This document shows positions 2,647 through 60,167 of a DNA stretch of 64,000 nt, piece after piece; the first letter of the stretch is position 1; every line of letters begins with the position of its first letter. This stretch comes from Bacteroidia bacterium (GTDB lineage Bacteria; Bacteroidota; Bacteroidia; DATLTG01), in contig JBDTAC010000041.1 of NCBI GenBank assembly GCA_039924845.1, positions 728 through 64,727 on the forward strand, given 5' to 3'. The position numbers were made by a program, and so were the translations under genes. The notes under the pieces were generated by a model, which saw nothing but the letters and a program-made list of their open reading frames with translations, had not been told where the DNA came from and did not search any database.

Positions 2647-2653
2647 TGAAAAA

Positions 2654-3322
2654 TTATTTTTCTTCTTCTTTTTTCAAATCCTTTTTGCTAACCTGCTCCA
2701 TTGGAACATTTTTATTTACAGGGCGAACATGAACAGCGTGCCCTGTTGCTCGTGTGCCTTGTATTACGTAACCTGTACTGCCGCATCTGTTGCCATAAAT
2801 ACAGCGAACTGTATCGCCATCAATAGGAATAGTTTCGTTTTTTACTTCTTTAACTTTAGTGAAATAAAAATAATACCCTCCACAATCATTTAGCAAGGTG
2901 TCTCCTTTCAAGTAAAATGCTGCACAATCATTCACGCACCCAAATTTCCCAATGCTATCCACAGGTTCAATAACTTTTATTTTTGAAAGTTCTTTCGTTG
3001 TATATGTGTAAACTAATGGATCTTGTGAATCTAAATTTACGGTATCATATTTAGTTACTATCCAATGATCGAAATTGCACCACTCAATGAAACTAATATT
3101 ATTGTAATAGTATGTATGCTTTTCCACTGTTAATATAGATGCTTGAAGTTTGCGCGCCTGTTCCGGAGTTAAATTTTCATATCCTCTTGCATCTAACTTT
3201 ACACATTTCCATTTTCCGTATAGATATTTACTTGGAGCATTTTTTAATTGTTGTGCATAACAATTGTAACACAGTATAAGTGTAGAAAAAAGAAGTAATT
3301 TTTTACTGACCATTGTTTTCAT
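2654..3322 (-). CDS. Secreted (signal-peptide) protein, putative immunity to the lysozyme-type toxin
   Basis: The internal start MKTMVSKKLLLFSTLILCYNCYAQ reads as a signal peptide. The ORF overlaps the 3' end of toxin 3 on the same strand. An alternative start is at 3313. Confidence 0.55.
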   Translation of the reverse strand: MKTMVSKKLLLFSTLILCYNCYAQQLKNAPSKYLYGKWKCVKLDARGYENLTPEQARKLQASILTVEKHTYYYNNISFIEWCNFDHWIVTKYDTVNLDSQDPLVYTYTTKELSKIKVIEPVDSIGKFGCVNDCAAFYLKGDTLLNDCGGYYFYFTKVKEVKNETIPIDGDTVRCIYGNRCGSTGYVIQGTRATGHAVHVRPVNKNVPMEQVSKKDLKKEEEK

Positions 3323-4487
3323 ATATTCCATATAAAAAGATATTTTGTTCTGCAGTTCTCCTGTTTTGAAGTCCTTGTGAATACTCATTCCCTGAGGTAT
3401 TGACATCCATTTCTGATGCTGCTCCAGAAAAATCAGAATTATTTAGTTTAGCAATAAAATGCCTGCCTGCCGCAAGCGAATTATTTACGCCTACATTAAA
3501 CACATAACTTACAGTTGCATTAAACTGCTGCTGAGTAAGTTGGACATTAACGTAAGTATCAACTAAGATAATAGTTTTTTTTATATCAGTTGTAAATAAG
3601 GCATCTGCCTGATCTTGAGTAATACCTTGACTATAATCTTCTCCGCGCTGAACTACGTGTCCGTATCCTATTGTTATTTTACCCGTAGGAGCTTCACCTT
3701 GTTTCCAATATTTGTTTTTATCGTCATATTCTTGTAATGCAGGTCCTCCTTTAGGTCCTTGCTCATACGATTTGATAAAATCTTGTCCTTGAGTATTTAA
3801 CACTAAATCTTTTACATCTTTTTTAGAATCGGTTGTACTTGTCTTTTGATTTTCATCAGATAAACTTTTCTGATAATCTGCCATATCAGCAGCTTCTTTT
3901 TTCGGGTCAGCCCATTCCAAACCTTCTAAATCTTTTCCATCAATAACTCTGTCCATCGCAAAAGCATAAGGCGACCAACCCGCATATTTTCTCCTTAAAG
4001 GGTCTAAGCTCCAAAAGTGTATTAGGCGTGGGTCATCTTCTCTGAATTTAAAATCATAGGCGTTAGCATTGCCGTAAATATCATTGTCTTTGAGCTTTCC
4101 GTTGTATCCGAAGGTGTACAAGGAATCCTGATAATTCCTTCTCGGCATCAGCATACCGCCAGGATAGTAGTCATTGTAACTAATCACAAAAGCGGTACTA
4201 TCCGCATTCTTACGGTCTCTAACAATGGTGTGGACATTTCCTAAATGGTCATTCAGTTCGTATTCTTTCTTGAAGATTTTTCTTGGGAATAAACCATTGT
4301 TTAAACCAATATCAATTGTCCAAAGGTTTACAGGACAAGAAATGCAACTATACGTAGGAATACCACTGGTAGGGAACGTTTTCACTAAAATATTCGGTTT
4401 CCATTCGCCAAGACGTGAGCTTCCATAGAGTGGTACTTCTGTTTGTATGTAATCGTAATTGCTGCCGTTGATTTTATTTATCTTCAC
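3303..4487 (-). CDS. Rhs/YD core-end protein with a C-terminal GH24 (phage/T4-type) lysozyme domain (cassette 3)
   Basis: The core end reads YTFGYNGKLKDNDIYGNANAYDFKFREDDPRL..WSLDP. The tail has SYEQG...TIGYGH...ITQDQADALF...LTQQQFNATVSYVFNVG...GLQNRRTAEQNIF, the classic GH24 pattern. The listed start is GTG. Confidence 0.8.
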   Translation of the reverse strand: MKINKINGSNYDYIQTEVPLYGSSRLGEWKPNILVKTFPTSGIPTYSCISCPVNLWTIDIGLNNGLFPRKIFKKEYELNDHLGNVHTIVRDRKNADSTAFVISYNDYYPGGMLMPRRNYQDSLYTFGYNGKLKDNDIYGNANAYDFKFREDDPRLIHFWSLDPLRRKYAGWSPYAFAMDRVIDGKDLEGLEWADPKKEAADMADYQKSLSDENQKTSTTDSKKDVKDLVLNTQGQDFIKSYEQGPKGGPALQEYDDKNKYWKQGEAPTGKITIGYGHVVQRGEDYSQGITQDQADALFTTDIKKTIILVDTYVNVQLTQQQFNATVSYVFNVGVNNSLAAGRHFIAKLNNSDFSGAASEMDVNTSGNEYSQGLQNRRTAEQNIFLYGIYENNGQ

Positions 4488-4534
4488 TCAAAAATTATTT
4501 TTTGAAACCTCTTTATCTCTTTAAAAGTGTAAGC

Positions 4535-4552
4535 GCAAATTGGAACACTACC
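4535..4552. repeat. Inter-cassette element copy C (GCAAATTGGAACACTACC)
   Basis: It is identical to 1134-1151. It lies 7 nt downstream of the immunity stop at 4559 and upstream of toxin 3. Confidence 0.8.
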
Positions 4553-4558
4553 CACCCA

Positions 4559-5110
4559 CTACCTCAATTTTACTTTGTATTTAGTTAATACTTTATAAGG
4601 ATAAATTCGTTGCTTAAAACTATTAAATGTACGAGGTTTCCAATGAGTAAAAACAATAAGACCATCAGATATTTCTCCATAGTAAAAATTGTAACCACCA
4701 TAATCGTCTGTGGTATATATTTCAATAGTGATTTTTGTACCTTTTATTTTATAATAGCCAATAAATGCATAAGTATCACTATTGCTATTACATTCTTTAT
4801 TGGTCGGTTTGTGTTCGTAAGCATAACTTATCAATAATTTTCCATTATTAAAAAAACGGTATATCACATAAGATGAGTCCACAAAGTGTGATCCATAGTA
4901 TACGTCTGTATTAAGATTAAAATATACTGCATTCGTGTCTATCAAATTAGTATCAGCTAAATGATAGGGGTGTTTTGCAAAAGAGAAATTTGATTTTTTG
5001 GGACGTATTCCTCCATCGGGTAGAGTATAATAATGAGGTATCCATCCCATAATACTACAAGAGGTAAAATTAATAACTATAAAAAAAAAGAAAAACAAAC
5101 GCTTTGCCAT
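4559..5110 (-). CDS. Lipoprotein, putative immunity protein for the 5161-6084 toxin
   Basis: It has an ATG start and the lipobox-like N-terminus MAKRLFFFFFIVINFTSC. It lies 50 nt downstream of toxin 2. Confidence 0.55.
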   Translation of the reverse strand: MAKRLFFFFFIVINFTSCSIMGWIPHYYTLPDGGIRPKKSNFSFAKHPYHLADTNLIDTNAVYFNLNTDVYYGSHFVDSSYVIYRFFNNGKLLISYAYEHKPTNKECNSNSDTYAFIGYYKIKGTKITIEIYTTDDYGGYNFYYGEISDGLIVFTHWKPRTFNSFKQRIYPYKVLTKYKVKLR

Positions 5111-5160
5111 ATATTAATTTTTTTTAGCACTTACTGTTTATTGCCTGCGTATCAACGTAA

Positions 5161-6084
5161 TTAATCATAATGGAATAACTTCAAGTCTTTAGAGTTGTGA
5201 ATATAATTTTGCAACCAGCCTGATCCGTAACTATCAAATAAAAAGCCATTTACTCTCCCAAAAGTATCTGCTTTATTCAATGATTGTTGAAAAGGATCTT
5301 GATCGTAATACAAACTTGTCGCAGTTCTTTGCTGGCTATTAGAACCAAAATGCGTGCCTGTAAAATCCTGATACCCACCTTCAAATAAATTTCCTCCTAA
5401 ATTCGCTGAAAAAATAATTCCACCTGTCCAACCTTGATCTGTGCCACCTCTTGCTCCAACCAATCCTTGAGTTGTTGTTTTATTTGTTGCTGAATTATAG
5501 TTGAGTATTTGACCATACGTTCCAGAGCCACCGAAAGTATTGTTTAACGCAGATTTGGTATTGAAATTTAATGTATATTGTGGCAGTCCAATACCCTTAC
5601 CACCACCAAAAGTTGCATAAGCTGATGTACTGATGTCGAACTGTATAGCTGAACTGTTTCCTGAAGTACCTAAACCACCATTATAAACATTGACAGACAA
5701 ATCAAGTGTTGGCTGAAAAAAGTTAAAACGCTGTCCTATACTTGCTGTTGCTCCTGCATTAAAAGTTAATTTATTACCTCCAAAAGTCAACCCTAAACTT
5801 GCTTCAAATCTTGCCTGAGGATTACCAGCCGTATTACCTTTCGGGTCGCTAAACCATATAGGATTATTACTAAAACCCGAATACAGGCTTTCCCACGCTT
5901 TTGGGGTCGGGTCTAAGCTCCACCAACGTCCGCCTAGGCGTGGGTCAAGCATTCTAAACTCGGCAGTATAGGCATTTCCAGTTCCATAAATCTCGTTATC
6001 CTTCTCCATTCCGTTGAATCCGAATCTACAGCCTCCTGTGCAGCAGGCTGTAGATTCGGACATCGTAGCGGTATTGCGTGGCAT
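5161..6084 (-). CDS. Rhs/YD core-end protein with a Gly/Asn-rich unrecognised C-terminal domain (cassette 2)
   Basis: It carries CRFGFNGMEKDNEIYGTGNAYTAEFRMLDPRLGGRWWSLDP...NPIWFSDPKGN, then a Gly-rich, apparently beta-rich tail. Only about 20 aa precede the core-end motif. An alternative ATG is at 6063. Confidence 0.75.
   Translation of the reverse strand: MPRNTATMSESTACCTGGCRFGFNGMEKDNEIYGTGNAYTAEFRMLDPRLGGRWWSLDPTPKAWESLYSGFSNNPIWFSDPKGNTAGNPQARFEASLGLTFGGNKLTFNAGATASIGQRFNFFQPTLDLSVNVYNGGLGTSGNSSAIQFDISTSAYATFGGGKGIGLPQYTLNFNTKSALNNTFGGSGTYGQILNYNSATNKTTTQGLVGARGGTDQGWTGGIIFSANLGGNLFEGGYQDFTGTHFGSNSQQRTATSLYYDQDPFQQSLNKADTFGRVNGFLFDSYGSGWLQNYIHNSKDLKLFHYD
6019..6060 (-). other. Perfect 16-bp inverted repeat (42-nt hairpin) inside the first 22 codons of toxin 2
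   Basis: TCCGAATCTACAGCCT (6019-6034) pairs with AGGCTGTAGATTCGGA (6045-6060) around a 10-nt loop. It begins right after the internal ATG at 6063. Confidence 0.9.
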
Positions 6085-6160
6085 TGTTTCGTTTTGTGTA
6101 ATTCAAAAATACGGTTTATTTTGCCTTTGAAAAAATATTTTTTTGAAGCCTAAAAATGTA

Positions 6161-6181
6161 GGTGACAATCTGAACACTACC
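6161..6181. repeat. Inter-cassette element copy D (GGTGACAATCTGAACACTACC)
   Basis: It lies 15 nt downstream of the immunity stop at 6196 and upstream of toxin 2. It matches copy A in 19 of 21 positions. Confidence 0.8.
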
Positions 6182-6195
6182 AAAAATGACTATTG

Positions 6196-6603
6196 TTAAA
6201 TACAATCAATAAAAGTAGATATCCCGATACCTCTTAATACAAGCATAATTATATAAAATAAGCATATAATTATATTTATCTTAGCCGTCCAGTTTGTAAT
6301 TTTATGATAGTTTTTATTTCTCATTATGTATTTTAGAAATAGTTTATTTATGGAGTAAATTATAAATATCAAAACACCTGTTTCAGCAATTAATGCTATT
6401 GATTCATAAATAGCTGCTCCAGTTGAACCCCATATATCAATTCTCGAATTGTTATTCTTCCACATTAAATTAGCAGGAATAAATAAATCATTAAGATAAA
6501 CAGCTAACCACAGAAGAATGGGATAAGTTAATATTTGATACCCAAAATTATAAATACCATACAAGCCGTATAAAATATATTTTATATAATTATTGAACCT
6601 CAT
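6196..6603 (-). CDS. Polytopic membrane protein, putative immunity protein for the 6600-7556 toxin
   Basis: It has about 4 hydrophobic helices. The ATG at 6603 overlaps the toxin TGA stop as ATGA, which suggests translational coupling. Confidence 0.6.
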   Translation of the reverse strand: MRFNNYIKYILYGLYGIYNFGYQILTYPILLWLAVYLNDLFIPANLMWKNNNSRIDIWGSTGAAIYESIALIAETGVLIFIIYSINKLFLKYIMRNKNYHKITNWTAKINIIICLFYIIMLVLRGIGISTFIDCI

Positions 6604-7556
6604 TTGTTTGTAGCTGGTTTGCTGATGTGATTTTTGTTCCACTCTTTAAGAGTGTAGGTTTTACCACCATATTCGACACCTGTAAAATTTCCTTTAGAGT
6701 CAATATTTATTCTTACGTCAACAGTTCCAAGTTTCTTTGTGTTATCAAAATATAAACTTAAAGGATTTCCTTTAGCCCCCGAACCAGTTAACCAAACTGT
6801 TTGCCCTTTTGCATCACTTACCAATGCTTCGGTAGCGGGAAATTCTTTTCCTGATAAATCAACATAAGCAATCAAATAACCCGCTTTATCATTTTCCGCT
6901 AATATTACAGATGAATTTACTTCAATATTAGGAGCTGTCCCCAAAAGTGCAAGGTCGGGATTAGAACCCGAATAATGCGCTTCAACATCAGCTACATCAG
7001 AACCCGCATTTTTATAAAAAGTTTTGTTGTCTACTTTTCCTTTGTCTGTTGTGTGTGTTGCATTACCAACTGTTTTACCACTAGTTTTAGTATCGGAACT
7101 TGTTGGATGACCATTACCTATTACTGATTTTTTCGTAGGATCTACGGTATAAGTTTGACTAATACGCGATGTAACATTTTGTTCGGCAGAAAAGCCTCTC
7201 TTATCATCATCATAATCAAAGTATTTGAAAGCATCAGGTGGAACAAAAGACCTAACAGTAACAGCGAATGGAAATAAACCATCTGCATCTAAATAAAGAA
7301 TAGGATTAGAATAGCCATAAGAGTACGGAGACCAAAATGGAATTTTAGCTGCTAATTTATCCAAACTTAACCACCTGCCCAATCTCGCATCGTCCATTCT
7401 GTATTTGAAATCGTAGGCGTTTCCTATTCCACAAAGTTCGTTTGTTTTTTCCTGTCCGTTGAAGCCGAAACAATATGAATTTAGGTTTGATTTGTATCTG
7501 TTGTGTACAATTTTTTGTTGTTCATTTAGATTTTCATAGAAATCTACTTCGTCCAT
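6600..7556 (-). CDS. Rhs/YD core-end protein with an unrecognised C-terminal domain (cassette 1)
   Basis: It has an ATG start and carries YCFGFNGQEKTNELCGIGNAYDFKYRMDDARLGRWLSLDK...SPYSYGYSNPILYLDADGL, followed by a unique tail of about 220 aa. Confidence 0.75.
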   Translation of the reverse strand: MDEVDFYENLNEQQKIVHNRYKSNLNSYCFGFNGQEKTNELCGIGNAYDFKYRMDDARLGRWLSLDKLAAKIPFWSPYSYGYSNPILYLDADGLFPFAVTVRSFVPPDAFKYFDYDDDKRGFSAEQNVTSRISQTYTVDPTKKSVIGNGHPTSSDTKTSGKTVGNATHTTDKGKVDNKTFYKNAGSDVADVEAHYSGSNPDLALLGTAPNIEVNSSVILAENDKAGYLIAYVDLSGKEFPATEALVSDAKGQTVWLTGSGAKGNPLSLYFDNTKKLGTVDVRINIDSKGNFTGVEYGGKTYTLKEWNKNHISKPATNK

Positions 7557-7721
7557 TTTCGATTTTTATTGGTTTATATTCACTAACTTATTTATTGGCG
7601 AATATAATTAATTTTCAATTAATTTCTCATCTGCAAATTGAGGTATATCCCTAATACTCTAAAAAAAGAAGAGCTTCCTTTTTGAATATCCCTCCCCAAT
7701 TTATTATAAAGCAAGATTATT

Positions 7722-8036
7722 GTTTGATGGCGCATGTTACTCGTGTGATGGAGCATGTCATTTGTTTGATGGCGCATGTTAATTGTTTGATGGCACATGT
7801 TACTCGTGTGATGGCAGATGTTATTTGTTTGATGGCACATGTTATTTGTTTGATGGCAGATGTTACTCGTGTGATGGCGCATGTTATTTGTTTGATGGCA
7901 CATGTTATTTGTTTGATGGCACATGTTACTCGTGTGATGGAGCATGTTACTTGTGTGATGGCGCATGTACACTGTGTGATGGAGCATGTTATTTGTTTGA
8001 TGGAGCATGTACACCGTGTGATGGAGTATGTACATC
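7722..8036. repeat. Tandem repeat, 15 contiguous 21-bp units (GTKTGATGGMRCATGTWAYWY)
   Basis: The units were read directly and are in perfect 21-bp register with no spacers. Three overlapping ORFs (two plus, one minus) stay open across it. Confidence 0.95.
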
Positions 8037-8110: not shown

Positions 8111-10546
8111 TTATTTGCCTATCGGGAAAATCAGTTTAAAACCTACATTTCTGCCCATATTGTAAATACCTTGGCTTTGATTGGTTACGGTAACTATTCT
8201 GCCACCATAAGATAGGAAATAGTTTGCAAGATCTAAATGATCTGCATATCCTACATTGGTTAAATTAGTACAATTGATATACAATGAACAAATTACCCTG
8301 CCTGTTTTCGGGTTTACAAAATTGGTTCCTATACCTGCATTAAATAAAGTGTATGCGGCAGAAGGAATTTCTGTATAAAGTGCGCTGTAAATAGCATTTT
8401 GCGCCCAATATTTTGCTTGTCCTAACTTAATGTAGGTATCTTTTAATATGGAATTTGGTTTGTTATTCAAGTGAAGCTTCACTTCCGTAGTTATGTGCGT
8501 AGCAGGTATCCAAGGAATATGATCGGTTGAATCCGTTTGATTTGGCAGAAAGGAATAAATATACGTTAAGCCATTGTCTATTTCAATCCATTTTGTACTA
8601 ACAGGATGTATGTTGAAATACCCCGAAACTCCCGTAATGATAGCAACGTTGCTTGATACAAATTGGTAAACAGGAAGTCCGCCTGAAACAGAATCGGTAC
8701 GATCGCCAAATATGAAATTATTTATAATATTATAAAAACCATCGGCTTCAAAACTAAGGTCCTTCCCATTATTTCCATAGGCAATATCTAATTGATAGCC
8801 TTGTTCTGATTTTAAATTTAAGTTCCCTAACTGAACGGCATTGGAACCGATATTCTGACCATTGCTTGTTAATTCATTAATAGCAGGAGCTCGGTAACTC
8901 TTTGAGAAATTGAGTTTCAGATAATTATTATTTGGTAATTGGTAAGAAGCACCAACACTTCCGGATGGTCCGGTATACGTATTGTTAAATGGACTAAATT
9001 GTGTTTCTGCTCCCGGAGTTCCAGCCGAAACTTGCTGTTGTTCGGGAGTACCACTGTTTGTCAGATACATTCCTTGTCCAATAAAATTACTCCAATCGTA
9101 TCTCAATCCTCCACTTACTGTGAGATTTTTAAAATCTTTTTCTAAAATGGCATAAGCACCCGCTTGAAAATCGGTATAGTTCGGTATTTCATAATTACCA
9201 ATATAAGGCGCAGGTGGTTCCGCCAGTTGGTGCTCGAATTCGTAAGTCCCGTTTATGCCAGTGGTCAGTTTCAATCCTGATTTTTCTCCTATAATTTGAT
9301 ATTTCAAGGAATAAGGAATATCATATACCTGCATATTTCCTTCTCCAACACTTCCTGAATCAATGTCGTGGTGAACACTTTGGGTGAAACCAATATCTAT
9401 CCCAACTCTTCCAGTGCCTGCGTTAATACTATTTTGCCACCAAATTTGATTTTCATCCAAAATTTTATCTCCAGCAATGGTAGGATTGTATGCTAAGAAG
9501 TTGGATTTGTTTGGATATATCTGTCCATTTTGAGGAGCATCGAACATAAATTGTCCAGTTGCGCTGTCGCGATTACCATCCGGCACTTGAATTCGTCTGT
9601 GGAGCGCGCTTACTGTAAGTCGCGTATATCCCCAAGATTTATTCAGTCCAATTGTTAATCGCGCATTCGACTGTTGCCAAGCAGTTCCCCAAATATATCC
9701 ATCTTTTGGATTCCAGTAATCATGCGTTTCTTCGTTACTTGCTCTTAGGTTCCACACAAAATCATTATTATTTCCTCCAATATTTTCGGAGGTTCCGATG
9801 TATCCATCATTGGTATGATATTCTGTAAGCACGCTACCTTGCACCGTTCCGCTTTCTGCAAAAGGTTGCGATTTAAAGCTAATCACTCCCGCTTCGGCAC
9901 TTGCCCCATATTGTAAAGAAGCAGGTCCTCGAATAATTTCAGCATCATAAACAGCATAAGGATCTATCAAAATACCGTGGTCGTCTCCCCATTGAAAATC
10001 TTCTTGTCTTTCTCCATCCATCAACACTAAAACACGGTCAAATCCCAAGCCGTTAATTTGTGGCTTTGTGGTCCCAGAACCTTCCGTTGTTTCATTTACA
10101 CCAGGCTGAGAAGCCACGGCATCAATGGCAGTACTCGAAGTTTGTTGCAACATTACATCGTGAGATATCAGCGAAACAGGTACGGGAGAACGTTGCGTAT
10201 TGGTAACGTTACCCAATGCTGTAATCACCACTTCGTTAGCGGTACAGGCGGAAATACACATAGAACAAGTACAAGTGGTACTGTCCGTTATCATAACTTG
10301 TTGAGTTATGGTAGCATATCCCAAAATTTTTACTTCCATTTCATAAGTTCCTTTAGGGATAGGACTTATTCTAAATTCTCCATTTGAATTGGTAGTAGCA
10401 CCTAAATTAAGTTGCGGAATATACACCACGGCTCCCACTATTGTTTGATGGCTCAAAGAGTCTATAACAGTACCACTTAAAGACTGAGCCATTGCAACAT
10501 TGATTAACATCAATAAAGATGAAATCAATAAAAATATTTTTTTCAT
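8111..10546 (-). CDS. TonB-dependent receptor with an N-terminal carboxypeptidase-regulatory-like domain
   Basis: The signal peptide is MKKIFLLISSLLMLINVAMAQ. A CarboxypepD_reg-like segment (GTVIDS...NGEFRISPIPKGTYEMEVKILGY) is followed by a plug region and a long beta-barrel ending in an aromatic-rich C-terminus. Confidence 0.85.
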   Translation of the reverse strand: MKKIFLLISSLLMLINVAMAQSLSGTVIDSLSHQTIVGAVVYIPQLNLGATTNSNGEFRISPIPKGTYEMEVKILGYATITQQVMITDSTTCTCSMCISACTANEVVITALGNVTNTQRSPVPVSLISHDVMLQQTSSTAIDAVASQPGVNETTEGSGTTKPQINGLGFDRVLVLMDGERQEDFQWGDDHGILIDPYAVYDAEIIRGPASLQYGASAEAGVISFKSQPFAESGTVQGSVLTEYHTNDGYIGTSENIGGNNNDFVWNLRASNEETHDYWNPKDGYIWGTAWQQSNARLTIGLNKSWGYTRLTVSALHRRIQVPDGNRDSATGQFMFDAPQNGQIYPNKSNFLAYNPTIAGDKILDENQIWWQNSINAGTGRVGIDIGFTQSVHHDIDSGSVGEGNMQVYDIPYSLKYQIIGEKSGLKLTTGINGTYEFEHQLAEPPAPYIGNYEIPNYTDFQAGAYAILEKDFKNLTVSGGLRYDWSNFIGQGMYLTNSGTPEQQQVSAGTPGAETQFSPFNNTYTGPSGSVGASYQLPNNNYLKLNFSKSYRAPAINELTSNGQNIGSNAVQLGNLNLKSEQGYQLDIAYGNNGKDLSFEADGFYNIINNFIFGDRTDSVSGGLPVYQFVSSNVAIITGVSGYFNIHPVSTKWIEIDNGLTYIYSFLPNQTDSTDHIPWIPATHITTEVKLHLNNKPNSILKDTYIKLGQAKYWAQNAIYSALYTEIPSAAYTLFNAGIGTNFVNPKTGRVICSLYINCTNLTNVGYADHLDLANYFLSYGGRIVTVTNQSQGIYNMGRNVGFKLIFPIGK

Positions 10547-10610
10547 GAAATGATAATACTGTAATAAATAAAACTCTTTTGTTATTCTGAACATTTGAAG
10601 AATCTATTTT

Positions 10611-48908: not shown

Positions 48909-48927
48909 CAAAAAAATATTTTTTTAA

Positions 48928-50451: not shown

Positions 50452-50503
50452 ATTTTTTGTTTTTTGATAGAGTTCGTTGGCAAATATAACTATATTATAT
50501 TAA

Positions 50504-51740: not shown

Positions 51741-54700
51741 ATGCTAAAAAAAATAGTTGTTTTTCTTTTTTTTATTTCGTCTTCGCTTTCTTTGCTCGCT
51801 CAAAGTGATGTGGGTTTGCGTTATTTAAAATGGAAAAATCCTGTTGTTGAAACATTACCTGATGGGCGCGAGGTCTCCTATATTTGTTTCCAAAAAGCCA
51901 TTTACGATTCGAAAACACAGCCGCTTCCCACGTATTATGAAACGATTAAATTGTCAGGAAATCCAACTGATATTTCCGTGAGTTTAATCAATGATGTATA
52001 TGAACCTCTTACTTCAGCAGAGGTTAATTTAGCGACTCAAAAAAATATTTTTTTAAGTACTAAAATAAAAATAATTGCAAATGTGGGTTACAGTCAGAAA
52101 CAAGCCTTTGCTCAAATAAAATTTATTCCCATTAGAAAAAATACTTTTACAGGAGCCTATGAAAAATTAGTTTCTTTCAGTTTTATTATTCAGAATGTAA
52201 AAGAGGAATTGAAAACGCACAGAACAGGATCCATGAGTTTCGCTGCTAATTCGGTTTTGGCAACCGGAAAGTGGTATAAAATAGGCGTAACTCAGGATGG
52301 TATTTATAAATTATCCTATCAATATCTAAAAAATATCGGGATGGATATGACAACAATTAATCCTAAAAATATCCGAGTTTATGGTAATGGAGGTGGCATG
52401 TTGCCTTTGCCCAATAGTACTTTTAGACACGATGATTTAGTAGAAGATCCTATTTTTGTAAATGAACAAAATAACACAACGCTGGACAGTGCTGGATATT
52501 TACTTTTCTATGGGCAAGGTCCAGTAATTTGGAAGTATGATTCTACCGATACTAGATTTCATCATCAAAGTAATTATTATTCTGATACCACTTTTTATTT
52601 TATTACAGCGGATTTAGGTGCAGGTAAACGAATTGCTAACATTCCTTCCGCCACACAATCTATAACAAATACGGTTAGCTCTTTTGATGATTATAATTAC
52701 CACGAATTAGACGGAGTAAATTTGATACGTTCTGGAAACCAGTGGTACGGAGAACAATTTAATATACTCAATTCATATAATTTTTCTTTTAATTTTCCCA
52801 ATATCGATGTTTCTTCAAAAGTTTGGGTGAATACGGATTTGGTAGCTCGAAGTAGCTCTAACGGTTCTTTTTCCGTCAGTTCACAGTCGGGATCCACAAC
52901 GCTAATTACGACGCCTGTCGCAGTTACTTGCTTTGATTGTATATATGCTTCTGAAGCAGACAGCAGCTATGTATTTACTCCATCGAGCTCAAATATTACT
53001 GTAACCGTTACCAATAATACGCCAGCAGCGGTTGGTTGGTTAAATTTCATTGAATTAAATGCGAGAAGACAACTTACTATGGTTGGGAATCAAATGGAAT
53101 TCCAAGATACGAAATCGGTGGGTGCAACAAATATTTCACAATTTAATGTGTCTTCTTTTCTTCCGATAACAATATGGGACGTAACAGATCCGACCAATGC
53201 GCAACAAATCACAATGTCTTTGAGCGGTACGACGTATCAATATACCTTACCAACACCAACGCTCCGAAAATTTATTTCTTTCACTGGAAATAATTTTTTA
53301 ATACCACAAAATTTTGGTTCGGTTGCGAATCAGAATTTACATGCGTATCAGCGGGCAGATTTAATTATTGTTACGAATCCGAAATTTGTCAATCAAGCAA
53401 ATAATTTAGCAAATTTTCATGCAAATCAGGATAATTTAAATGTTGTAGTTGCTACAACTAATCAGATTTACAATGAATTTTCTGGCGGAGAACAAGATCC
53501 TGTAGGGATTCGAGATTTTGTTAAAATGTTTTATGACCGGGCAAGTAATCCAAGCAATGCTCCTAAATATTTATTACTGATGGGGCGCGGATCTTACGAT
53601 AATAAATATCGTATCCCCAATAATACAGATTACATCCCAACGTATGAATCAGACAATTCACTTGATCCTACTAGTTCCTATGTCTCAGATGATTTTTATG
53701 CTTTATTAGATGACAATGAAGGCGATTGGACTTCTAGTTATATGTTAGATATTGGCGTTGGTCGGATGCCAGTGCAAACAACTCAAGATGCACAAAATAT
53801 TATCAATAAGGTGATTCGCTATGAAACGAAAACGGGTGCCTTAGCATCGAGCGGAAACAATTGTAATTGTGGATCACAAGCTCAAAACTACAATTTAACT
53901 GATTGGAGAAATCAAATTTGTTTTGTAGCGCACGATGGTGATATTACTTTTGAATCGCAATCCGATCAACTTGCTACACAAGTGGAAACCGCTTATCCAG
54001 ATTATAATATAAATAAAATTTATTTTGATGCGTATGTAGAGCAAACAACGCCGGGAGGGGAACGTTATCCTGATGTCGAAAATGCAATTAACCAACAAGT
54101 TCAAAAAGGAGCATTTATTGTTAATTATCTTGGACATGGAGGCGTATTTGGTTGGGGATTGGAAAGGGTGTTAAGTATTTCGGATATTCAAAGTTGGACA
54201 AATATGAACACTCTACCATTGTTTATTACTGCAACCTGTGAGTTCAGTCGTTTTGATGATCCGGAACAAGTAGCAGCAGGGGAAGATATTTTGCTAAACC
54301 CTATTGGTGGTGGTATTGGTTTATTAACTACAGTGAGGGTTGTCTATTCAGGACCTAATTTTACGCTCAATCAGAATTTCTTTAATGTCTTACAAAGCCC
54401 TATGCATGGTACTTTTCCGAGAATGGGAGATTTAATGATGGAAACAAAAAATTTAAGCGGAACGAATGTAAACAATCGAAATTTTACTTTCTTGGGCGAC
54501 CCTGCTGTAACGCCTGCTTTCCCACATTTTAATGTAACCACAACTTCCGTAGGAGGAATCCTTGCCACATCACCCACAATGGATACAATTAAAGCATTGA
54601 CAAAAGTTACCATAATTGGTTTTGTGAGTGATTCTGCCGGAAGCAAGGTGTCTAATTTTAACGGAATTATTTATCCAACAGTATACGATAAGCCAAATAG

Positions 54701-55613
54701 TATAACGACACTTTCCAATGGTGGCACTGCAAATAATCCTCCTTTTACTTTTCAATTGCAAAATAGTGTTTTATATAAAGGAAAAGTAAGCGTCATCAAT
54801 GGAAATTTTAGTTTTACTTTTGTCGTACCTAAAGATATTGCTTACAATTTCGGGAAAGGTCGCATCAGTTATTACGCCGAAAATGGGGTGCAAGATGCTG
54901 CCGGACAATTCGGTAATTTTGTTGTGGGTGGCTCCAATCCAAATCCGCCCAAAGATGTTACAGGACCGTCTGTTAAACTGTATTTAAACGACAATAAGTT
55001 TGTATATGGAGGAATGACGAACGAAAATCCACAATTATACGCGACTGTTTTTGATTCGAGTGGGATAAATACAGTAGGAAATGGCATCGGACATGATATT
55101 ACAGCGATACTTGATCGCAATACTGCTGGTGCAATAAATTTGAATACCTATTATCAAGCCGATATGAATAGTTATCAAAGTGGAAGTGTTACTTATCCTT
55201 TCACAGGATTAAGTCCTGGCACACATACGCTTACGTTGAGAGTTTGGGATGTGTACAATAATTCATCCGAAGTAACAACAGAGTTTGTTGTAGCGCAAGC
55301 AGCGCAATTCCAATTGGATCACGTGTTGAATTATCCCAATCCGTTTACTACAAATACAAATTTTTATTTTGAACAAAATTTTGGCTGTGGGCAATTTGCA
55401 GTTCAAATTCAAATCTTCACCGTTTCTGGAAAATTAGTTAAAACAATCGCTGAAAATGTCCAAACACAAGGCTTTCGATCAGACCCCATTGAATGGAATG
55501 GAAAAGACGATTATGGCGATAAAATCGGACGAGGCGTTTACGTGTATCATCTAATTGTAAAGGCTTCGGATGGATCCATCGCAGATAAATACGATAAACT
55601 TGTTATTTTGTAA
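51741..55613 (+). CDS. porU: T9SS C-terminal signal peptidase PorU (gingipain/C25-like)
   Basis: The ATG at 51741 gives the signal peptide MLKKIVVFLFFISSSLSLLAQ. It is a protein of about 1290 aa with a C25-like central region and a C-terminal Ig-like sorting domain, and porV lies immediately downstream. Confidence 0.8.
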   Translation: MLKKIVVFLFFISSSLSLLAQSDVGLRYLKWKNPVVETLPDGREVSYICFQKAIYDSKTQPLPTYYETIKLSGNPTDISVSLINDVYEPLTSAEVNLATQKNIFLSTKIKIIANVGYSQKQAFAQIKFIPIRKNTFTGAYEKLVSFSFIIQNVKEELKTHRTGSMSFAANSVLATGKWYKIGVTQDGIYKLSYQYLKNIGMDMTTINPKNIRVYGNGGGMLPLPNSTFRHDDLVEDPIFVNEQNNTTLDSAGYLLFYGQGPVIWKYDSTDTRFHHQSNYYSDTTFYFITADLGAGKRIANIPSATQSITNTVSSFDDYNYHELDGVNLIRSGNQWYGEQFNILNSYNFSFNFPNIDVSSKVWVNTDLVARSSSNGSFSVSSQSGSTTLITTPVAVTCFDCIYASEADSSYVFTPSSSNITVTVTNNTPAAVGWLNFIELNARRQLTMVGNQMEFQDTKSVGATNISQFNVSSFLPITIWDVTDPTNAQQITMSLSGTTYQYTLPTPTLRKFISFTGNNFLIPQNFGSVANQNLHAYQRADLIIVTNPKFVNQANNLANFHANQDNLNVVVATTNQIYNEFSGGEQDPVGIRDFVKMFYDRASNPSNAPKYLLLMGRGSYDNKYRIPNNTDYIPTYESDNSLDPTSSYVSDDFYALLDDNEGDWTSSYMLDIGVGRMPVQTTQDAQNIINKVIRYETKTGALASSGNNCNCGSQAQNYNLTDWRNQICFVAHDGDITFESQSDQLATQVETAYPDYNINKIYFDAYVEQTTPGGERYPDVENAINQQVQKGAFIVNYLGHGGVFGWGLERVLSISDIQSWTNMNTLPLFITATCEFSRFDDPEQVAAGEDILLNPIGGGIGLLTTVRVVYSGPNFTLNQNFFNVLQSPMHGTFPRMGDLMMETKNLSGTNVNNRNFTFLGDPAVTPAFPHFNVTTTSVGGILATSPTMDTIKALTKVTIIGFVSDSAGSKVSNFNGIIYPTVYDKPNSITTLSNGGTANNPPFTFQLQNSVLYKGKVSVINGNFSFTFVVPKDIAYNFGKGRISYYAENGVQDAAGQFGNFVVGGSNPNPPKDVTGPSVKLYLNDNKFVYGGMTNENPQLYATVFDSSGINTVGNGIGHDITAILDRNTAGAINLNTYYQADMNSYQSGSVTYPFTGLSPGTHTLTLRVWDVYNNSSEVTTEFVVAQAAQFQLDHVLNYPNPFTTNTNFYFEQNFGCGQFAVQIQIFTVSGKLVKTIAENVQTQGFRSDPIEWNGKDDYGDKIGRGVYVYHLIVKASDGSIADKYDKLVIL

Positions 55614-55665
55614 TTAAAAAAATTATTTTTGTACCCCATTTATCAATAAAAAACAGAAGATAAAC

Positions 55666-56925
55666 ATGAAGTTTTTGAAAGAAAAAAAAATTTTCACCCT
55701 CACTGCCGGAATTGCATTTGCTGGTTTTTTAGGCGCGCAAACAAGTAATCCGACTAATCTAAATAATGTTGGACAAGCTACCAGCGGACATAATATTAAT
55801 ACAGTTACTACGGCTGTTCCTTTTTTAATGATTGCACCTGATTCCAGGTCGGGCGCGATGGGAGACGCTGGGGTTGCTTCTTCTCCTGACGCTAATTCGC
55901 TACATTGGAATTGTTCTAAGTTAGCATTTGTTGATAAACAAATGGGTTTTTCTATTTCCTATACTCCTTGGTTGCGCGCCTTGGTGCCAGATATTAATTT
56001 AGCATACCTTGCTGGATATTATAAATTAAAAAATGATCAAACCATCTCTGCTTCATTACGCTATTTTTCTTTGGGGAGTATTACATTTACTGATATGGGA
56101 GGCAATGCTATCGGACAATACAATCCCAATGAATTTGCGCTTGATTTCGGGTATGCAAAAAAACTATCTGACAAATGGTCGGGAGGAATGGCAGTACGTT
56201 ATATTTATTCCAATTTAACGGCAGGACAAATTGTCTCAGGTGCTACTACGCATCCTGGTAGGTCTATTGCTGCGGACATCAATACCTTTTATCAAAATTC
56301 TGACATTACCATTGGTGGTAAAAAAAGCATTTGGAGAGCTGGATTAAATATTTCTAATATTGGCGAAAAAATGTCATACAGCAGCAGTACGATAACCGAT
56401 TTTATTCCTACTGATTTGCGTTTGGGTACTTCTATTACCATCAATACAGACGAATACAACAGTTTTTCTTTCATGGTGGATGCCAATAAACTATTAGTGC
56501 CGACACCGCCAGTATATTATCAAAATCATTCGGGTACAGATAGCGTCAACGCCGCTGGACAATATGTAATCCTCGCAGGAAAAGATCCAAACCAAAGTGT
56601 AGTAAGTGGCATGATCAGCTCTTTTTCGGATGCACCGGGTGGTTTATTAGAAGAATGGCATGAAATTGATTGGTCTATCGGAACAGAATATTGGTATGCG
56701 AAGCAATTTGCTATTCGTGCTGGCTATTTTTATGAAGATGCCACCAAAGGTGATCGGCAATATGTTACGCTTGGAGCCGGATTAAAATATCAAGTTTTTT
56801 CACTCGATTTGGCATATCTAATTCCAACGCAAATAAATAATCCTTTGGCGCATACGTTACGTTTTACCATGCTTTTTGATTTGGATGGATTTAAGGATCA
56901 GAATAAAAAAACCACGACAGATTAA
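55666..56925 (+). CDS. porV: T9SS outer-membrane shuttle/channel protein PorV (LptO)
   Basis: It has TAVPFLMIAPDSRSGAMGDAGVASSPD near the N-terminus and a beta-barrel of about 400 aa. It is syntenic with porU. Confidence 0.85.
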   Translation: MKFLKEKKIFTLTAGIAFAGFLGAQTSNPTNLNNVGQATSGHNINTVTTAVPFLMIAPDSRSGAMGDAGVASSPDANSLHWNCSKLAFVDKQMGFSISYTPWLRALVPDINLAYLAGYYKLKNDQTISASLRYFSLGSITFTDMGGNAIGQYNPNEFALDFGYAKKLSDKWSGGMAVRYIYSNLTAGQIVSGATTHPGRSIAADINTFYQNSDITIGGKKSIWRAGLNISNIGEKMSYSSSTITDFIPTDLRLGTSITINTDEYNSFSFMVDANKLLVPTPPVYYQNHSGTDSVNAAGQYVILAGKDPNQSVVSGMISSFSDAPGGLLEEWHEIDWSIGTEYWYAKQFAIRAGYFYEDATKGDRQYVTLGAGLKYQVFSLDLAYLIPTQINNPLAHTLRFTMLFDLDGFKDQNKKTTTD

Positions 56926-56935
56926 AAAGAGCCTT

Positions 56936-56952
56936 CAAAAAAATAATTTTTC
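56936..56952. repeat. A-tract/T-tract palindrome (CAAAAAAATAATTTTTC), representative copy
   Basis: It ends 3 nt before the ispF ATG. Confidence 0.9.
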
Positions 56953-56955
56953 GAG

Positions 56956-57435
56956 ATGAACATACGTATTGGATTTGGCTTTGATGTACATCCTTTAAAA
57001 GAAGGAATTGATTTTTGGTTAGGTGGAATTCAGCTTCAACATACAAAAGGCGCGGAAGGGCATTCAGATGCTGATGTATTGATTCATGCTATCTGCGATG
57101 CCTTACTTGGTGCAGCCAATCTCGGAGATATTGGTATTCATTTCCCGAATACTTCTTCCGAATTTAAAAATATTGATAGTAAAATTTTATTGAGAAGAGT
57201 AGCGGATTTAATAAAAAAGGAAGGCTACGAAATCGGGAATATTGATGCTACTGTTACGCTCGAACAACCTAAAATAAATCCATACATTCCTGAAATGAAA
57301 AAAGTGTTATCACATGTAATGGGAATTTCCGAAAATGATATTTCCATTAAAGCAACTACTAACGAACAGCTTGGTTATGTAGGTAAAGAAGAAGGCGTGA
57401 ACGCTTCTGCTGTTGTGCTGATTCAAAAATTATAG
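56956..57435 (+). CDS. ispF: 2-C-methyl-D-erythritol 2,4-cyclodiphosphate synthase
   Basis: It has GFGFDVH and GHSDADVLIHAICDALLGA motifs, at 159 aa. Confidence 0.95.
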   Translation: MNIRIGFGFDVHPLKEGIDFWLGGIQLQHTKGAEGHSDADVLIHAICDALLGAANLGDIGIHFPNTSSEFKNIDSKILLRRVADLIKKEGYEIGNIDATVTLEQPKINPYIPEMKKVLSHVMGISENDISIKATTNEQLGYVGKEEGVNASAVVLIQKL

Positions 57436-57661
57436 TTTTTTTTTGTTTTTTTGAAGTTTATACGAATGTATAATAAACCTATACTTCTTTTTAATTAGTG
57501 CTTTTTTAGATTACTTGCTTTTGCATCATCTAAAACATAGCCAAGCAACCTTTTTCAAGCGCATCTCTACCTTAAATTTCATTTTCCGTTTTTTACAAAT
57601 TATTTTGAATATTAAAAAAAAGATATATATTCGTCCTTGTATTTATTCAAAATATTTTTAG

Positions 57662-59413
57662 ATGAAAAAAACATTACTCATTGTCAGTATTCTTTTTTTG
57701 AGTGCATTTTTTGTAAGTGCCCAAGTTCCACAAGGAATTACTTATCAAGCAATCGCTCGTAATTCTGTAGGCGTTGAATTAGCAAGTACTGCTATTCAGG
57801 TAAAATTTACTATTCACACAGGCACTGCTGCCGGACCAATTGAATGGGAAGATACGCAAAGTACAACCACCAACCAATTTGGTTTATTTACACTTGTTAT
57901 AGGAAGTGGTACATCTACAACAGTAGGCTCTGCGACTACTTTTTCTGCTATTAACTGGGGGAGTGGAAATCATTTCCTCGAAGTATCTGTCAATATTGGC
58001 TCCGGCTATGTTTCTATGGGGACAACACAATTTATGTCTGTACCTTATGCTTTGTATGCAGCCAACGCACCACAAGGTCCGACTGGTCCAACAGGACCTA
58101 CTGGAGCGACGGGTGTAACAGGATCAACTGGAACTGCGGGTACGAATGGCGTAACGGGTGCTACTGGTCCAACAGGTGCAACTGGAACTGCAGGTACGAA
58201 TGGTGTAACGGGTGCTACTGGTTCAACAGGGGCGATTGGAACAAATGGTGTTACAGGACCTACGGGAGCAACTGGTTTTTTACAATCCGGCACTACAGGT
58301 TCTGTACCTTACTACAATGGCACTAATTGGGTTACAACCGCAACAAATATTTATGATTTAGGAAGCAATATTGGTATTGGAACCAATACTCCTAACAATT
58401 TTATTCAAGTACAAGGTTTAATTGATTTTGAAAACAATGGCTCTAACGTTAGCTTGGGCTTAAACACTCCCACAACAACGTCCTCAACAGGAAATTATTA
58501 TAATACTTTTGTTGGTTACAATGCAGGACAAAGCACTTCTGGCGCTGGTGGTGCTTCGGAAACATTTATTGGGTACAATGCCGGCAATGCAAATACAGTT
58601 GGCGGTAACAATGTTTTTATTGGTGCCAATTCAGGATCTTTAAATACAATCGGGGTACAAAATAGTTTCTTTGGCTCCACAGCTGGCAAAATAAATACAA
58701 CAGGATCTGGCAACACTGCAATTGGTTATAACGCCACTTTTTCTACAAACAATTTAACAAATGCTACCGCTATTGGAGCAAATGCCGTTGTCAGTGCCAA
58801 CAACGCCTTAGTACTTGGTTCTCCAGGAACCATGGTTGGTATTGGAACTAGCAACCCTAGTTATTCACTTGATATCGTAAATACTAGTTATAATTTATTG
58901 CACTTAAGCACAACTGGAGCCAACAGTAACGTTAATTTAGATTTCTCTCCAACGGGAGCTGGGATTGCACAATTTAGTGCAATTGGTTATGGATTTTCAT
59001 TTGTCACACAAGGATCAACTCCTGCTATTTTTGTGAACAGCAGCAACAATGTGGGTATTAATACAAACAGCCCTAATACTAATGCTGCCTTGGATGTAGA
59101 AGGGTTTACAAAAATGGGAAATAATGCAAATGCTCCAATTATCCAAATGGAAACATTAACTGGTACTACATCCGCTACAAGCGGAGGAACTGTAGCTATT
59201 CCTCATGGACTAACTTCTACTAAAATTTTGTCGGTTACTGTTTTGGTTCAATATTCACCTAACAATTTTATTCCTCCTGAATATAAACTCAGTACAAACT
59301 ACCAATACAATTTTTACATCAGCAATACAAATATCGTAGTTTGGTCATATACTGGGAATGACGCTAATATTTTAGGAAAACCACTTACAATATTGATAAC
59401 ATATTCAAATTGA
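57662..59413 (+). CDS. Secreted collagen-triple-helix-repeat fibre protein with a beta-helix-like repeat region and a globular C-terminus
   Basis: It has a signal peptide and about 20 uninterrupted G-X-T triplets ([16 protein letters not shown]...). These are followed by short Asn/Gly/Ala-rich repeats (IGYNAG, IGANS, AIGANA) like those of fibre or adhesin heads. Confidence 0.75.
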
Positions 59414-59432
59414 AAATATAGCCTCTTCTAAA

Positions 59433-60167
59433 ATGATAGTTCGAAAAAATATTTTTCTGATGCTGTTTATTTGCTTCGTTGTTTTTTCAGCGGATGCCCA
59501 GCAATTAACTCCTTTTTTAATTGGCAGTACTGGAAATTACAGTACTAATGGAACATTTAGTATTTCTTCTTCCGTTGGTGAGCCTATAACAACGAGCTTA
59601 TTTAATCCAAGTCTTATACTGACGCAAGGCTTTCAACAACCAACAATACTCACTGTTTTGCCTTTTGCTTTTTATGTGAGTGAAAACAATGAAACTTGTA
59701 TCAATGCCAATGATGGAAGTGCAACGGTACATGTTAGTGGAGGAAGACCTCCATTCACGTATTCTTGGTCGCCTATTTCAAGCAACAGCGATTCTGTGCA
59801 ATCGTTACCACCTGGAATATATTTTGTTACCGTTTCAGATTCAACCGGAGCTTCAAAAACAGATACTATCAACATACAAGAAAGTCAAGAAGCTTGTGCG
59901 ATTCACATCTATACAGGAATTACGCCTAACGGCGATGGACACAACGATTTTTGGCAAATTGATAACATTGAATTGCATCCCAACAACAAGGTAATTATTT
60001 TTAACCGTTGGGGCAGCGAAGTATGGAAAGCAAAAGGATACAACAATAATAATATCTCTTGGAAAGGGGAGAGTGAATTAGGAAAAGCATTGCCGGATGG
60101 TACTTATTTTTATGTATTTACCATAGATGATAAAACATATAAAGGTTGGGTACAATTAACGCGATAG
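59433..60167 (+). CDS. SprB-repeat protein with a T9SS type-B C-terminal domain
   Basis: It has CINANDGSATVHVSGGRPPFTYSWSP (SprB-type repeat) and the tail TPNGDGHNDFWQIDNI...IIFNRWGSEVW...DGTYFYVF. Confidence 0.75.
   Translation: MIVRKNIFLMLFICFVVFSADAQQLTPFLIGSTGNYSTNGTFSISSSVGEPITTSLFNPSLILTQGFQQPTILTVLPFAFYVSENNETCINANDGSATVHVSGGRPPFTYSWSPISSNSDSVQSLPPGIYFVTVSDSTGASKTDTINIQESQEACAIHIYTGITPNGDGHNDFWQIDNIELHPNNKVIIFNRWGSEVWKAKGYNNNNISWKGESELGKALPDGTYFYVFTIDDKTYKGWVQLTR

Follow-up and report, generated by a model that had tools for sequence, protein, structure and literature searches.

Hyper-abundant words in bacterial genomes report on cellular processes: the uptake signal sequences (USS) of Pasteurellaceae and the DNA uptake sequences (DUS) of Neisseriaceae on uptake, Chi on recombination, and the FtsK orienting polar sequences (KOPS) on segregation. 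For another such word, the highly iterated palindrome HIP1 (GCGATCGC) of cyanobacteria, a role in the chromosome or nucleoid is suspected (PMC5861425). The present work concerns an all-A/T palindrome, hereafter the word, found in a 64-kb stretch of one genome (contig JBDTAC010000041.1 of a Bacteroidia bacterium; the whole stretch is called the window). Its consensus is 5′-T-Y-S-A(5–7)-T(1–2)A(1–2)-T(5–7)-S-R-A-3′, which is dyad-symmetric. The unit under selection or drive was found to be the duplex-DNA word itself, which is maintained as a nucleotide sequence, with roughly one copy to each gene.

HIP1 and the word are both short palindromes, over-represented 15–300 fold, with one copy or more for roughly every gene; they are found in non-coding DNA and, in all frames, in coding sequence, are lineage-restricted, and have no peptide or RNA role. 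HIP1, however, is an exact G/C-rich 8-mer with a methylation site. The word is all A/T, has variable arms and centre, a core of 14–15 bp, degenerate C/G flanks, distal A/T blocks and a much stronger gene-boundary bias, and its host belongs to the Bacteroidota, so far in a single lineage; it is thus not HIP1 proper. With USS and DUS the word shares a density of about one per kb, lineage specificity, a placement at tolerated protein positions and in intergenic DNA, and many one-mismatch copies. The A/T-rich flanks of USS lie in helical phase. USS and DUS differ from the word in being non-palindromic, in having an invariant core and in often forming inverted pairs that serve as terminator stems; they are defined by biased uptake.

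Curved A-tract DNA and the sites of shape-reading proteins of the Fis, IHF and HU type resemble the word in their A-before-T polarity and their G/C-bounded A/T core, and are marked by dyad symmetry and an A/T modulation of about 10 bp. Unlike curved AnTn DNA, the word has a TpA step in its centre, a direct A-run/T-run junction without TpA being found once only, and unlike the word, the sites of established nucleoid proteins are not known to be over-represented 40-fold as a single word. Repetitive extragenic palindromic (REP) sequences, bacterial interspersed mosaic elements (BIME) and miniature inverted-repeat transposable elements (MITEs) are likewise abundant, palindromic, genome-specific and frequent at gene ends, but REP sequences and MITEs are longer and are strictly extragenic insertions, whereas the word is also intragenic and arises by substitution without added length. 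Rho-independent terminators share with the word an A-run and a T-run around a dyad downstream of genes, but the word has no G/C stem, folds at about −1.5 instead of −20 to −23 kcal/mol, and occurs within genes and operons as well.

The window is 91% coding, with about 51 open reading frames (ORFs). It encodes GldD, GldJ, PorP/SprF, PorU, PorV, PorE-like proteins and cargo of the type IX secretion system (T9SS), and because of its GldD, GldJ and T9SS genes the host was identified as a gliding, uncultured member of the Bacteroidota. This phylum makes little use of Shine–Dalgarno sequences, as had been supposed for the lineage from the DNA alone. The nearest named relatives by GldJ are metagenome-assembled genomes of Flavobacteriales, Crocinitomicaceae and Fluviicola (60–68% identity). 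Elsewhere the exact window sequence was found only in Logan assemblies of run SRR24716215, identical to the window; these extend 2.86 kb beyond its end, so that about 67 kb was accessible.

Abundance and form of the word

The word was counted with a core expression, A{5,}(TA/TTA/TAA/TTAA)T{5,}, with no flank requirement and an arm sum of at least 10, and with a strict expression, [CG]A5–7(TA/TTA/TAA/TTAA)T5–7[CG]. The former gave 44 copies in the 64 kb (0.69/kb) and the latter 36; near-miss copies, defined as one substitution away from the word and mostly carrying a run of four in place of five, numbered about 24, a ratio of perfect to one-mismatch copies of about 2:1 (44:24). The overabundance claimed in the initial annotation was confirmed, and all its example coordinates were correct, two of them (48909–48925 and 52038–52054) having A, not C or G, on one side.

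Dinucleotide-preserving shuffles gave an expectation of 1.06 copies (maximum 4), and Markov models of orders 1, 3, 5 and 7 gave 0.75, 1.1, 2.9 and 10.7 copies, respectively, against the 44 observed, the order-7 model being largely trained on the word itself. Wholly inside ORFs there were 23 copies, compared with 0.39 expected from codon permutation within genes and 8.6 ± 2.2 from a synonymous-codon shuffle. An enrichment of 15–50 fold persisted under the order-5 Markov, codon-permutation and synonymous-shuffle controls, and no model up to order 5 and no codon shuffle of the window reproduced the counts. The excess over the Markov expectation (44 versus 0.8–2.9 at orders 1–5) is of the HIP1 type, at least 15-fold, and so is the density, at 44 copies for about 51 ORFs, or about one per gene, with frames 0, 1 and 2 used and 16 copies intergenic. 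Since all three frames are used and the codon controls fall short, selection or drive acts at the nucleotide level, and the earlier proposal that the word and not a peptide is selected was upheld; because both codon shuffles fall short, the nucleotide word has shaped not only the choice of codons but also the peptide words (KKYFF, KNIF, KIFF).

The 2.86 kb past the window end (Logan contig, same organism), used as a hold-out, contained three more copies, all at gene ends, at the same density as in the window. Within the window no copy lies between 32323 and 38912, where copies had been described as sparse (about 32.4–38.9 kb); the G+C content of this stretch is slightly higher, about 39%, and its recent acquisition is possible. 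The word-free 6.6 kb (32324–38911) hold the efflux adaptor, T9SS-sorted cargo at 33706–34887 and 35969–38221, and an RDD-family protein.

The centre of the word is always T(1–2)A(1–2), namely TA in 25 copies, TTA in 8, TAA in 7 and TTAA in 4. The arms are 5–7 long and the total A/T core is 13–16 nt, with a mode of 14–15 bp. Core length varies less than it would if arms and centre were independent (variance 0.98 versus 2.19, P < 1e-4), and centre length is anticorrelated with arm length (r = −0.52); some of the anticorrelation between the arms could stem from the rule that their sum be at least 10, but not the centre effect. Among the 67 C/G-flanked all-A/T stretches of 14–15 nt in the window, 30 are this word.

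Position −1 is C or G in 80 of the 88 half-sites, as the claim of almost invariable C/G flanks had it, whereas other A/T runs in the window have T there in 40% of cases. T or C occupies position −2 in 78 of 88, T predominates at position −3, and the opposite side mirrors this with R and A. The left/right flank pairs were GC (11), CG (6), GG (9) and CC (10), complementary in 17 of 36, as expected by chance; the two half-sites act independently. Farther out, a block at −14 to −10 has an A/T content of 87% in gene-edge copies and of 81% in copies deep in coding sequence, versus 63% in the coding background (P = 1e-6), and A/T content dips to about 50% at −7 to −5. Taken from the core, the T-Y-S flanks and the outer A/T blocks, the element is therefore dyad-symmetric and about 43 bp wide. 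The A/T blocks at −14 to −10 and the T at −4 to −2 are spaced by about 9–10 bp, with only one or two repeats per side.

The polarity of the runs was pronounced. Six-base A6..T6 stems with a loop of 0–4 numbered 49 against 3.9 expected, and T6..A6 stems numbered 0 against 4.8 (order-3 Markov), with G/C-containing palindromes near expectation (130 versus 102). The exact mirror word, T5+(AT..)A5+, occurred once in the window, in line with the reported rarity of the opposite arrangement, and the absence of T-run-then-A-run palindromes suggests avoidance of the mirror beyond a lack of enrichment. A preference for the A-run 5′ of the T-run, a feature of curved DNA of the AnTn type, was thus found for stems (49 versus 0) and for full words (44 versus 1).

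An A-run followed by a T-run and the reverse arrangement differ only in the double helix (minor-groove width and bending), not in hairpin potential. The core ± 4 nt folds as RNA at a median of −1.55 kcal/mol and its absent A/T-swapped mirror at −1.2; windows of 45 nt fold at −1.2 to −9.3 kcal/mol, with z-scores of +0.8 to −3.2. Canonical G/C-rich terminators were found at 44681–44717 (+; −22.8 kcal/mol) and 48877–48910 (−; −19.9 kcal/mol), both immediately downstream of a copy, between the word and the next gene; at 44681–44717 the T-run of the word is the outer 5′ arm of the stem. The word itself has no G/C stem, 23 of its copies are contained entirely in ORFs, 13 being deep, and several sit in operon-like junctions of at most 9 nt, its flanking S/S combinations are independent where an RNA hairpin would require covariation, and an Rfam search of the window gave no match. 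Since the A-then-T class but not the equally foldable T-then-A class is enriched, a property of the duplex rather than a hairpin is indicated. A hairpin or terminator was rejected for these reasons, and with it the weak bidirectional hairpin that had been put forward at the outset: folding is negligible and no better than that of the mirror, the flanks are not paired beyond chance, and true terminators stand separately beside two copies.

Two promoter elements were also considered and rejected. The Bacteroidetes −33/−7 promoter, compared by eye, has the wrong spacing, G is no commoner than C behind the T-run, and some copies are intragenic. The promoter UP element is a site for the C-terminal domain of the RNA polymerase alpha subunit (alpha-CTD) with the consensus AAAWWTWTTTT. 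It did not fit: such a site would be placed about 40–60 bp upstream of a transcription start, and many copies are 2–16 nt from start codons, on stops or in genes.

Placement, origin and distribution of the word

By place, 16 copies are intergenic, 5 straddle a stop codon, about 10 fall within the first 20 codons of a gene or its last 5, and 13 are deep in genes, which gives a density of about 3/kb in non-coding DNA versus 0.24/kb deep in genes (about 10-fold). The word is more boundary-biased (22 of 40) than other C/G-flanked all-A/T 13–16-mers (28 of 95), and 4 of the 8 junctions of at most 9 nt carry a copy. Within spacers, no preferred distance to a start or stop was found (11 versus 10.0 expected from random placement, P = 0.38), and in tandem spacers copies with unequal arms had no significant orientation with respect to the direction of transcription (8:3:2). 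The initial view that the word marks gene boundaries therefore stood as to its greater density in non-coding DNA and at boundaries, but not as to closeness to gene ends within spacers.

All seven sites at which the centre had been read as a stop codon were verified, five in perfect copies (2654, 12745, 19130, 22528, 32315) and two in near-misses (26378, 38951). Because the TAA, TTA and TTAA centres and the T-run followed by GA in the flank are stop codons, ORFs necessarily end or begin at copies, and because the word itself carries stops, the GTG and TTG 'starts' 2 nt past it are probably artefacts of maximal ORFs. For the GTG-start ORF 1444–2646 no record as a called gene was found, consistent with an artefactual start. 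The ATGs of msrB, ispF and the efflux adaptor, 2–4 nt past the T-run, look genuine, so that of the starts placed just past the motif these three were retained and the GTG and TTG starts were not. Gene-boundary punctuation may largely be a by-product, in that non-coding DNA tolerates the word and the word carries stops.

Comparison with relatives bore on how the copies arose. The PorU copy (TQKNIFLS) lies in a segment that is not conserved among relatives and adds no length. In the MurF-like protein FEKLFFV stands where relatives have FENICFV or LTNVVLV, and because the length is unchanged this copy arose by substitution, not insertion. The YggS copy (EKIFF) falls in a variable loop, two residues longer than in solved (PDB) homologues. 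The orthologous gldJ–terminator, porU–porV, porV–ispF and porP–porU spacers of relatives do not contain the word, and the gldJ terminator is kept. The word thus arose in place, by substitution at tolerant positions; the sites that hold it are under low constraint, being spacers, last codons (..KK-stop), Lys/Phe-rich N-termini and variable protein loops. An inserted mini-element or an excision footprint was rejected on the PorU and MurF-like alignments and the non-complementary flanks, and the word was not assigned to the REP or MITE type, its intragenic copies adding no length in PorU and the MurF-like protein and its core being only 13–16 nt.

In 80 GldJ loci of other Bacteroidota there were 0–2 copies per locus and none was dense. 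The 40 of these loci below 40% G+C (685 kb) contained 11 copies against 4.4 expected (0.016/kb), so that the density of 0.69/kb in the window is about 40-fold that in low-GC Bacteroidota. A density of about one copy per kb restricted to one lineage is also what characterises uptake sequences. The nearest relatives (GldJ 76–78% identical) had 0–3 copies per 6–21 kb: none was found in loci L082–L085 and L328–L332 (38–48% G+C), and three, at 4716, 6405 and 21391, in L086 (GCA_017303975.1, JAFLBG010000007.1; 36% G+C, 21.5 kb). L086 is the sole relative above chance, one of its copies lying at the porV 5′ end and roughly matching the porU–porV copy of the window; its copies may reflect the same expansion at an early stage, or chance. 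The ispF–porV–porU/porP–gldJ block (compared over 47552–57435 of the window) is kept in L082, L083, L086, L328 and L330; murF-like follows gldJ in L082, L083 and L328, not in L086 and L330, and L083 has two porV paralogues.

A pattern scan of metagenomes returned at least 120 rows, nearly all of them single chance matches among the matches listed; the pattern of the first such scan was poorly chosen and matched only 2 window copies. A scan of viral contigs gave almost only single chance matches among the matches listed. One metagenome sequence (ERZ795048 NODE-1167; L175) carried the perfect extended consensus ttcgAAAAAATATTTTTTcgaa at 1736 and two further copies in 10 kb, and a 1.3-kb metagenome contig (L134) carried two overlapping copies 15 bp apart at 269–298. 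Among the sequences sampled, hyper-abundance is limited to this lineage, and none of the related genomes searched was dense with the word. Literature searches turned up neither this word nor any iterated palindrome in Bacteroidetes.

Copies along the window and neighbouring genes

The copies are given in order of position and without strand. Near the left end the copy G-AAAAATTATTTTT-C (2649–2661) has at its centre the stop codon of ORF 2654–3406(−). Next comes an intergenic copy (4490–4503), 2 nt away from the GTG at which ORF 3303–4487(−) starts in its maximal form; this ORF encodes 394 aa with a phage-lysozyme domain at the C-terminus. The copy at 6130–6144 is in mid-spacer, flanked by two (−) ORFs. 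The region 1176–8035 (−) has eight co-directional ORFs, seven without a Pfam match, the Pfam-less (−) ORFs being listed as 1176–1430, 1444–2646, 2654–3406, 4559–5110, 5161–6084, 6196–6603, 6600–7556 and 7619–8035; the cluster, which also takes in the lysozyme-domain ORF, looks like one of the effector/immunity or polymorphic-toxin type.

At 10530–10543 the copy is translated as MKKIFLL, in the signal peptide at what is probably the true N-terminus of the TonB-dependent receptor 8111–10594(−). The next two lie at 11188–11202, in a divergent spacer 11 nt ahead of ORF 11214(+), and at 11238–11250, where the word makes up codons 9–12 (KKYF) of the HMA-domain ORF 11214–11744(+). The copy at 12739–12754 is between convergent genes, its centre the stop of ORF 12745–14610(−), and 2 nt past the stop of ORF 11741–12736(+). 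Deep in the PD40/OmpA ORF 12745–14610(−) are copies at 13098–13111 (KNIF) and 13866–13880 (KIFF); that at 14594–14607 is at the junction of ORF 14617–16656(−) with the maximal TTG start of 12745–14610(−), and that at 15014–15027 is deep in the PorE/CHU_0125-like ORF 14617–16656(−). Three outer-membrane proteins with an OmpA C-terminus are encoded in the window (12745–14610, 14617–16656 and 61158–63848), two similar to PorE/CHU_0125, below the NCBIfam cut-offs, and one with PD40 repeats.

An intergenic copy at 18011–18025 lies 16 nt upstream of the start of sucB-like 16672–17994(−). The yggS-like gene 19130–19804(−) has a copy whose centre is its stop (19125–19138), in a tight junction with an EamA ORF, and another inside, in the variable loop EKIFF (19399–19413). 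Copies at 20119–20133 (KKYFF) and 20249–20263 (KNIF) are deep in a DUF1015 ORF, the copy at 22521–22536 has at its centre the stop of ORF 22123–22530(+), and that at 22840–22852 forms the N-terminus MRKIIFL of the WG-repeat protein 22835–24946(+), a protein of 703 aa with 11 WG beta-repeats.

The copy at 25798–25812 is 4 nt upstream of the msrB ATG (25817), and the near-miss AAAAAATAATTTT (26373–26385), with a T-run of 4, has the msrB stop codon as its centre. Three copies (26460–26472, 26507–26521 and 27087–27101) fall in the 0.8-kb stretch 26381–27177, which holds no convincing gene, and two (27202–27215 and 27434–27449) in the doubtful ORF 27178–27555(+), which has no family match. The whole of 26381–27664, about 1.3 kb without a convincing gene and with five copies, contains short hydrophobic ORFs and a 125-aa ORF without a family match, and had no Rfam match.

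A copy at 28188–28201 (KNIF) is deep in the outer-membrane efflux protein (OEP) ORF 27665–29050(+) and one at 31243–31257 (KINF) deep in the 1086-aa ORF 29057–32317(+), which, given the OEP and the HlyD-type protein encoded beside it, is taken for an efflux pump; the copy at 32309–32323 has the stop of this ORF at its centre and is separated by 2 nt from the ATG (32326) with which the HlyD-type adaptor starts. After the word-free stretch, an intergenic copy at 38912–38925 lies 25 nt downstream of the gldD stop codon, which is itself the centre of the near-miss AAAAATTATTTTC (38946–38958). Two copies 22 bp apart fall in the N-terminal region of gldD (39516–39530, KKYFF; 39538–39552, KNNF), followed by one near the 3′ end of the CNNM/CBS ORF 39567–40904(−) (39654–39667), an intergenic one 10 nt downstream of the ssb stop (40985–40998) and two in ORF 41538–42137(+), 47 nt from its start (41585–41599) and farther within (42053–42067).

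The copy at 44672–44686 is 5 nt past the stop of a TonB-dependent receptor, its T-run being the 5′ arm of the terminator 44681–44717. Copies at 46744–46757 and 47479–47492 lie 51 nt into the ABC ATPase ORF 46693–47469(+) and between this gene and the convergent murF-like gene, which itself contains the copy at 47718–47730 (FEKLFFV). The copy at 48910–48925 is 2 nt past the gldJ stop, with the canonical terminator 48910–48877 directly next on the (−) strand. Copies then follow in the divergent porP/porU spacer (51534–51547), inside porU, a C25 peptidase gene, in the non-conserved segment TQKNIFLS (52039–52054), between porU and porV, at 2 nt from the stop of the former and 35 nt from the start of the latter (55616–55630), and 11 nt from the porV stop and 4 nt from the ispF ATG (56937–56951). 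The last copy (59444–59456) is 11 nt into the maximal ORF of an SprB/CHU_C protein, 59433–60167(+). Just upstream, 57662–59413 encodes 583 aa with a collagen-like Gly-X-Y segment and weak Scl/Lcl adhesin matches.

Interpretation of the word and rival explanations

Of the roles suggested in the initial annotation, a HIP1/USS-like word and a bent-DNA or protein site fit the data best. A hyper-abundant, lineage-specific duplex-DNA word serving as the site of an architectural or nucleoid-associated protein was ranked first, as a tentative reading whose probability falls somewhat short of an even chance. TpA is the most flexible dinucleotide step, and the polarity of the runs together with this obligatory step would point to a rigid–hinge–rigid shape read by a dimeric protein or machinery contacting about 40 bp. 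Two rigid A-tracts of narrow minor groove, each bounded by C/G, would face each other across a flexible TpA hinge, and the duplex would be read symmetrically and largely by shape. An abundant, lineage-specific protein or machinery that binds DNA as a dimer may act as the reader; the simplest candidate would be an architectural or nucleoid-associated protein by which about 40 bp are bent or wrapped. The genome would have become enriched for the preferred site by selection or drive, as has been proposed for HIP1.

Several points weigh against this assignment. No likely reader protein was identified among the proteins of the roughly 67 kb available, and a sequence-specific site would not usually vary in the length of its arms and centre. 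The boundary bias and the copies in 4 of 8 short junctions leave room for a function tied to gene ends, and selection and neutral drive are inseparable because there is no close relative in which site conservation could be followed.

A DNA uptake signal, in which the competence machinery would prefer the word (for instance as an easily kinked hinge) and copies would accumulate through uptake bias and recombination, is the strongest rival, although an unlikely one. The density of 0.7/kb, the lineage specificity, the use of all frames and of variable protein positions and the non-coding excess match the USS/DUS pattern, as does the 2:1 ratio of perfect to one-mismatch copies, and the A/T flanks, which lie roughly one and two turns of the helix away from the centre, recall those of USS. 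Natural competence with a preference for own DNA has been reported in the Flavobacteriales (Riemerella columbina), with no uptake sequence identified (PMC7965970), which speaks for this rival too. Known uptake signals, however, have an invariant, non-palindromic, G/C-containing core and the word is degenerate in length, its copies are not in inverted terminator-forming pairs, and no competence genes were seen in the roughly 67 kb available.

Somewhat less probable again is a lineage-specific bias of mutation or repair that serves no function, for instance the conversion of near-cognates to the palindrome directed by mismatches or nicks. The origin of the word in situ by substitution, its absence from relatives and the many near-miss copies are as such a bias would have them, and there is a precedent in HIP1, for which neutral replenishment by biased DNA repair was considered as an alternative, tested and argued against (PMC5861425). 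Yet the flanks of C/G and Y, the constrained length and the A/T blocks farther out imply that about 40 bp are recognised, and the bending of proteins to the word (23 copies versus 0.4 under codon permutation) would be costly if purely neutral. A generic hairpin or template-switch correction is unlikely because all palindromes would then rise and the T-then-A ones do not; general palindrome-generating mutation by template switching was rejected on the same ground, only the A-run-then-T-run class being enriched.

Punctuation of RNA or expression, whether as a weak hairpin or terminator, as an RNase processing site or as a stop/restart and leader context where Shine–Dalgarno sequences are lacking, was judged improbable. 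About half of the copies are at or beside gene ends, five perfect copies have a central stop codon, credible ATGs (msrB, ispF, the efflux adaptor) follow the T-run by 2–4 nt, half of the shortest junctions carry a copy, and the boundary bias exceeds that of other all-A/T stretches. Set against this are the weak folding, no better than that of the absent mirror, the lack of flank covariation, the genuine GC-rich terminators that stand apart from the word, and a spacer placement no closer to gene ends than random. At least 13 copies are deep in genes and many are inside operons, in which termination would do harm; the word is missing from relatives that share the gene order and the machinery of expression, and an RNA signal needs no palindrome.

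An artefact of composition or peptides (low GC, Lys-Lys/Phe-rich signal peptides and KK-stop ends) is scarcely credible, for although other low-GC Bacteroidota show a 2.5-fold excess (11 versus 4.4) of which MKKIFF-type signal-peptide starts (10530 and 22840 here) may plausibly be the source, it was ruled out by the 40-fold excess over equal-GC relatives, by Markov models of orders 1–5, codon permutation and the synonymous shuffle, and by the 16 intergenic copies, the use of three frames and the fact that most copies have no ATG ahead.

The word joins a small class of hyper-abundant genomic words, to which it is new in being all A/T, defined by shape and length, degenerate in its flanks and boundary-biased. 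Such words are rare, and HIP1 is still unexplained after decades; the word would provide an example with a different physical logic, strong enough to change amino-acid sequences, and its A/T-swapped mirror is a ready negative control. By creating stops and false starts of maximal ORFs, it can lead gene callers and terminator predictors astray in such genomes. A bolder reading, doubtful and held less firmly than the architectural site, is that the word is the signal of an undescribed genome-wide system of Bacteroidota, either a shape-read uptake signal, which would be the first outside the Proteobacteria, or a dedicated chromosome-structuring site, for which genome and proteins alike would have been remodelled to about one site per gene.

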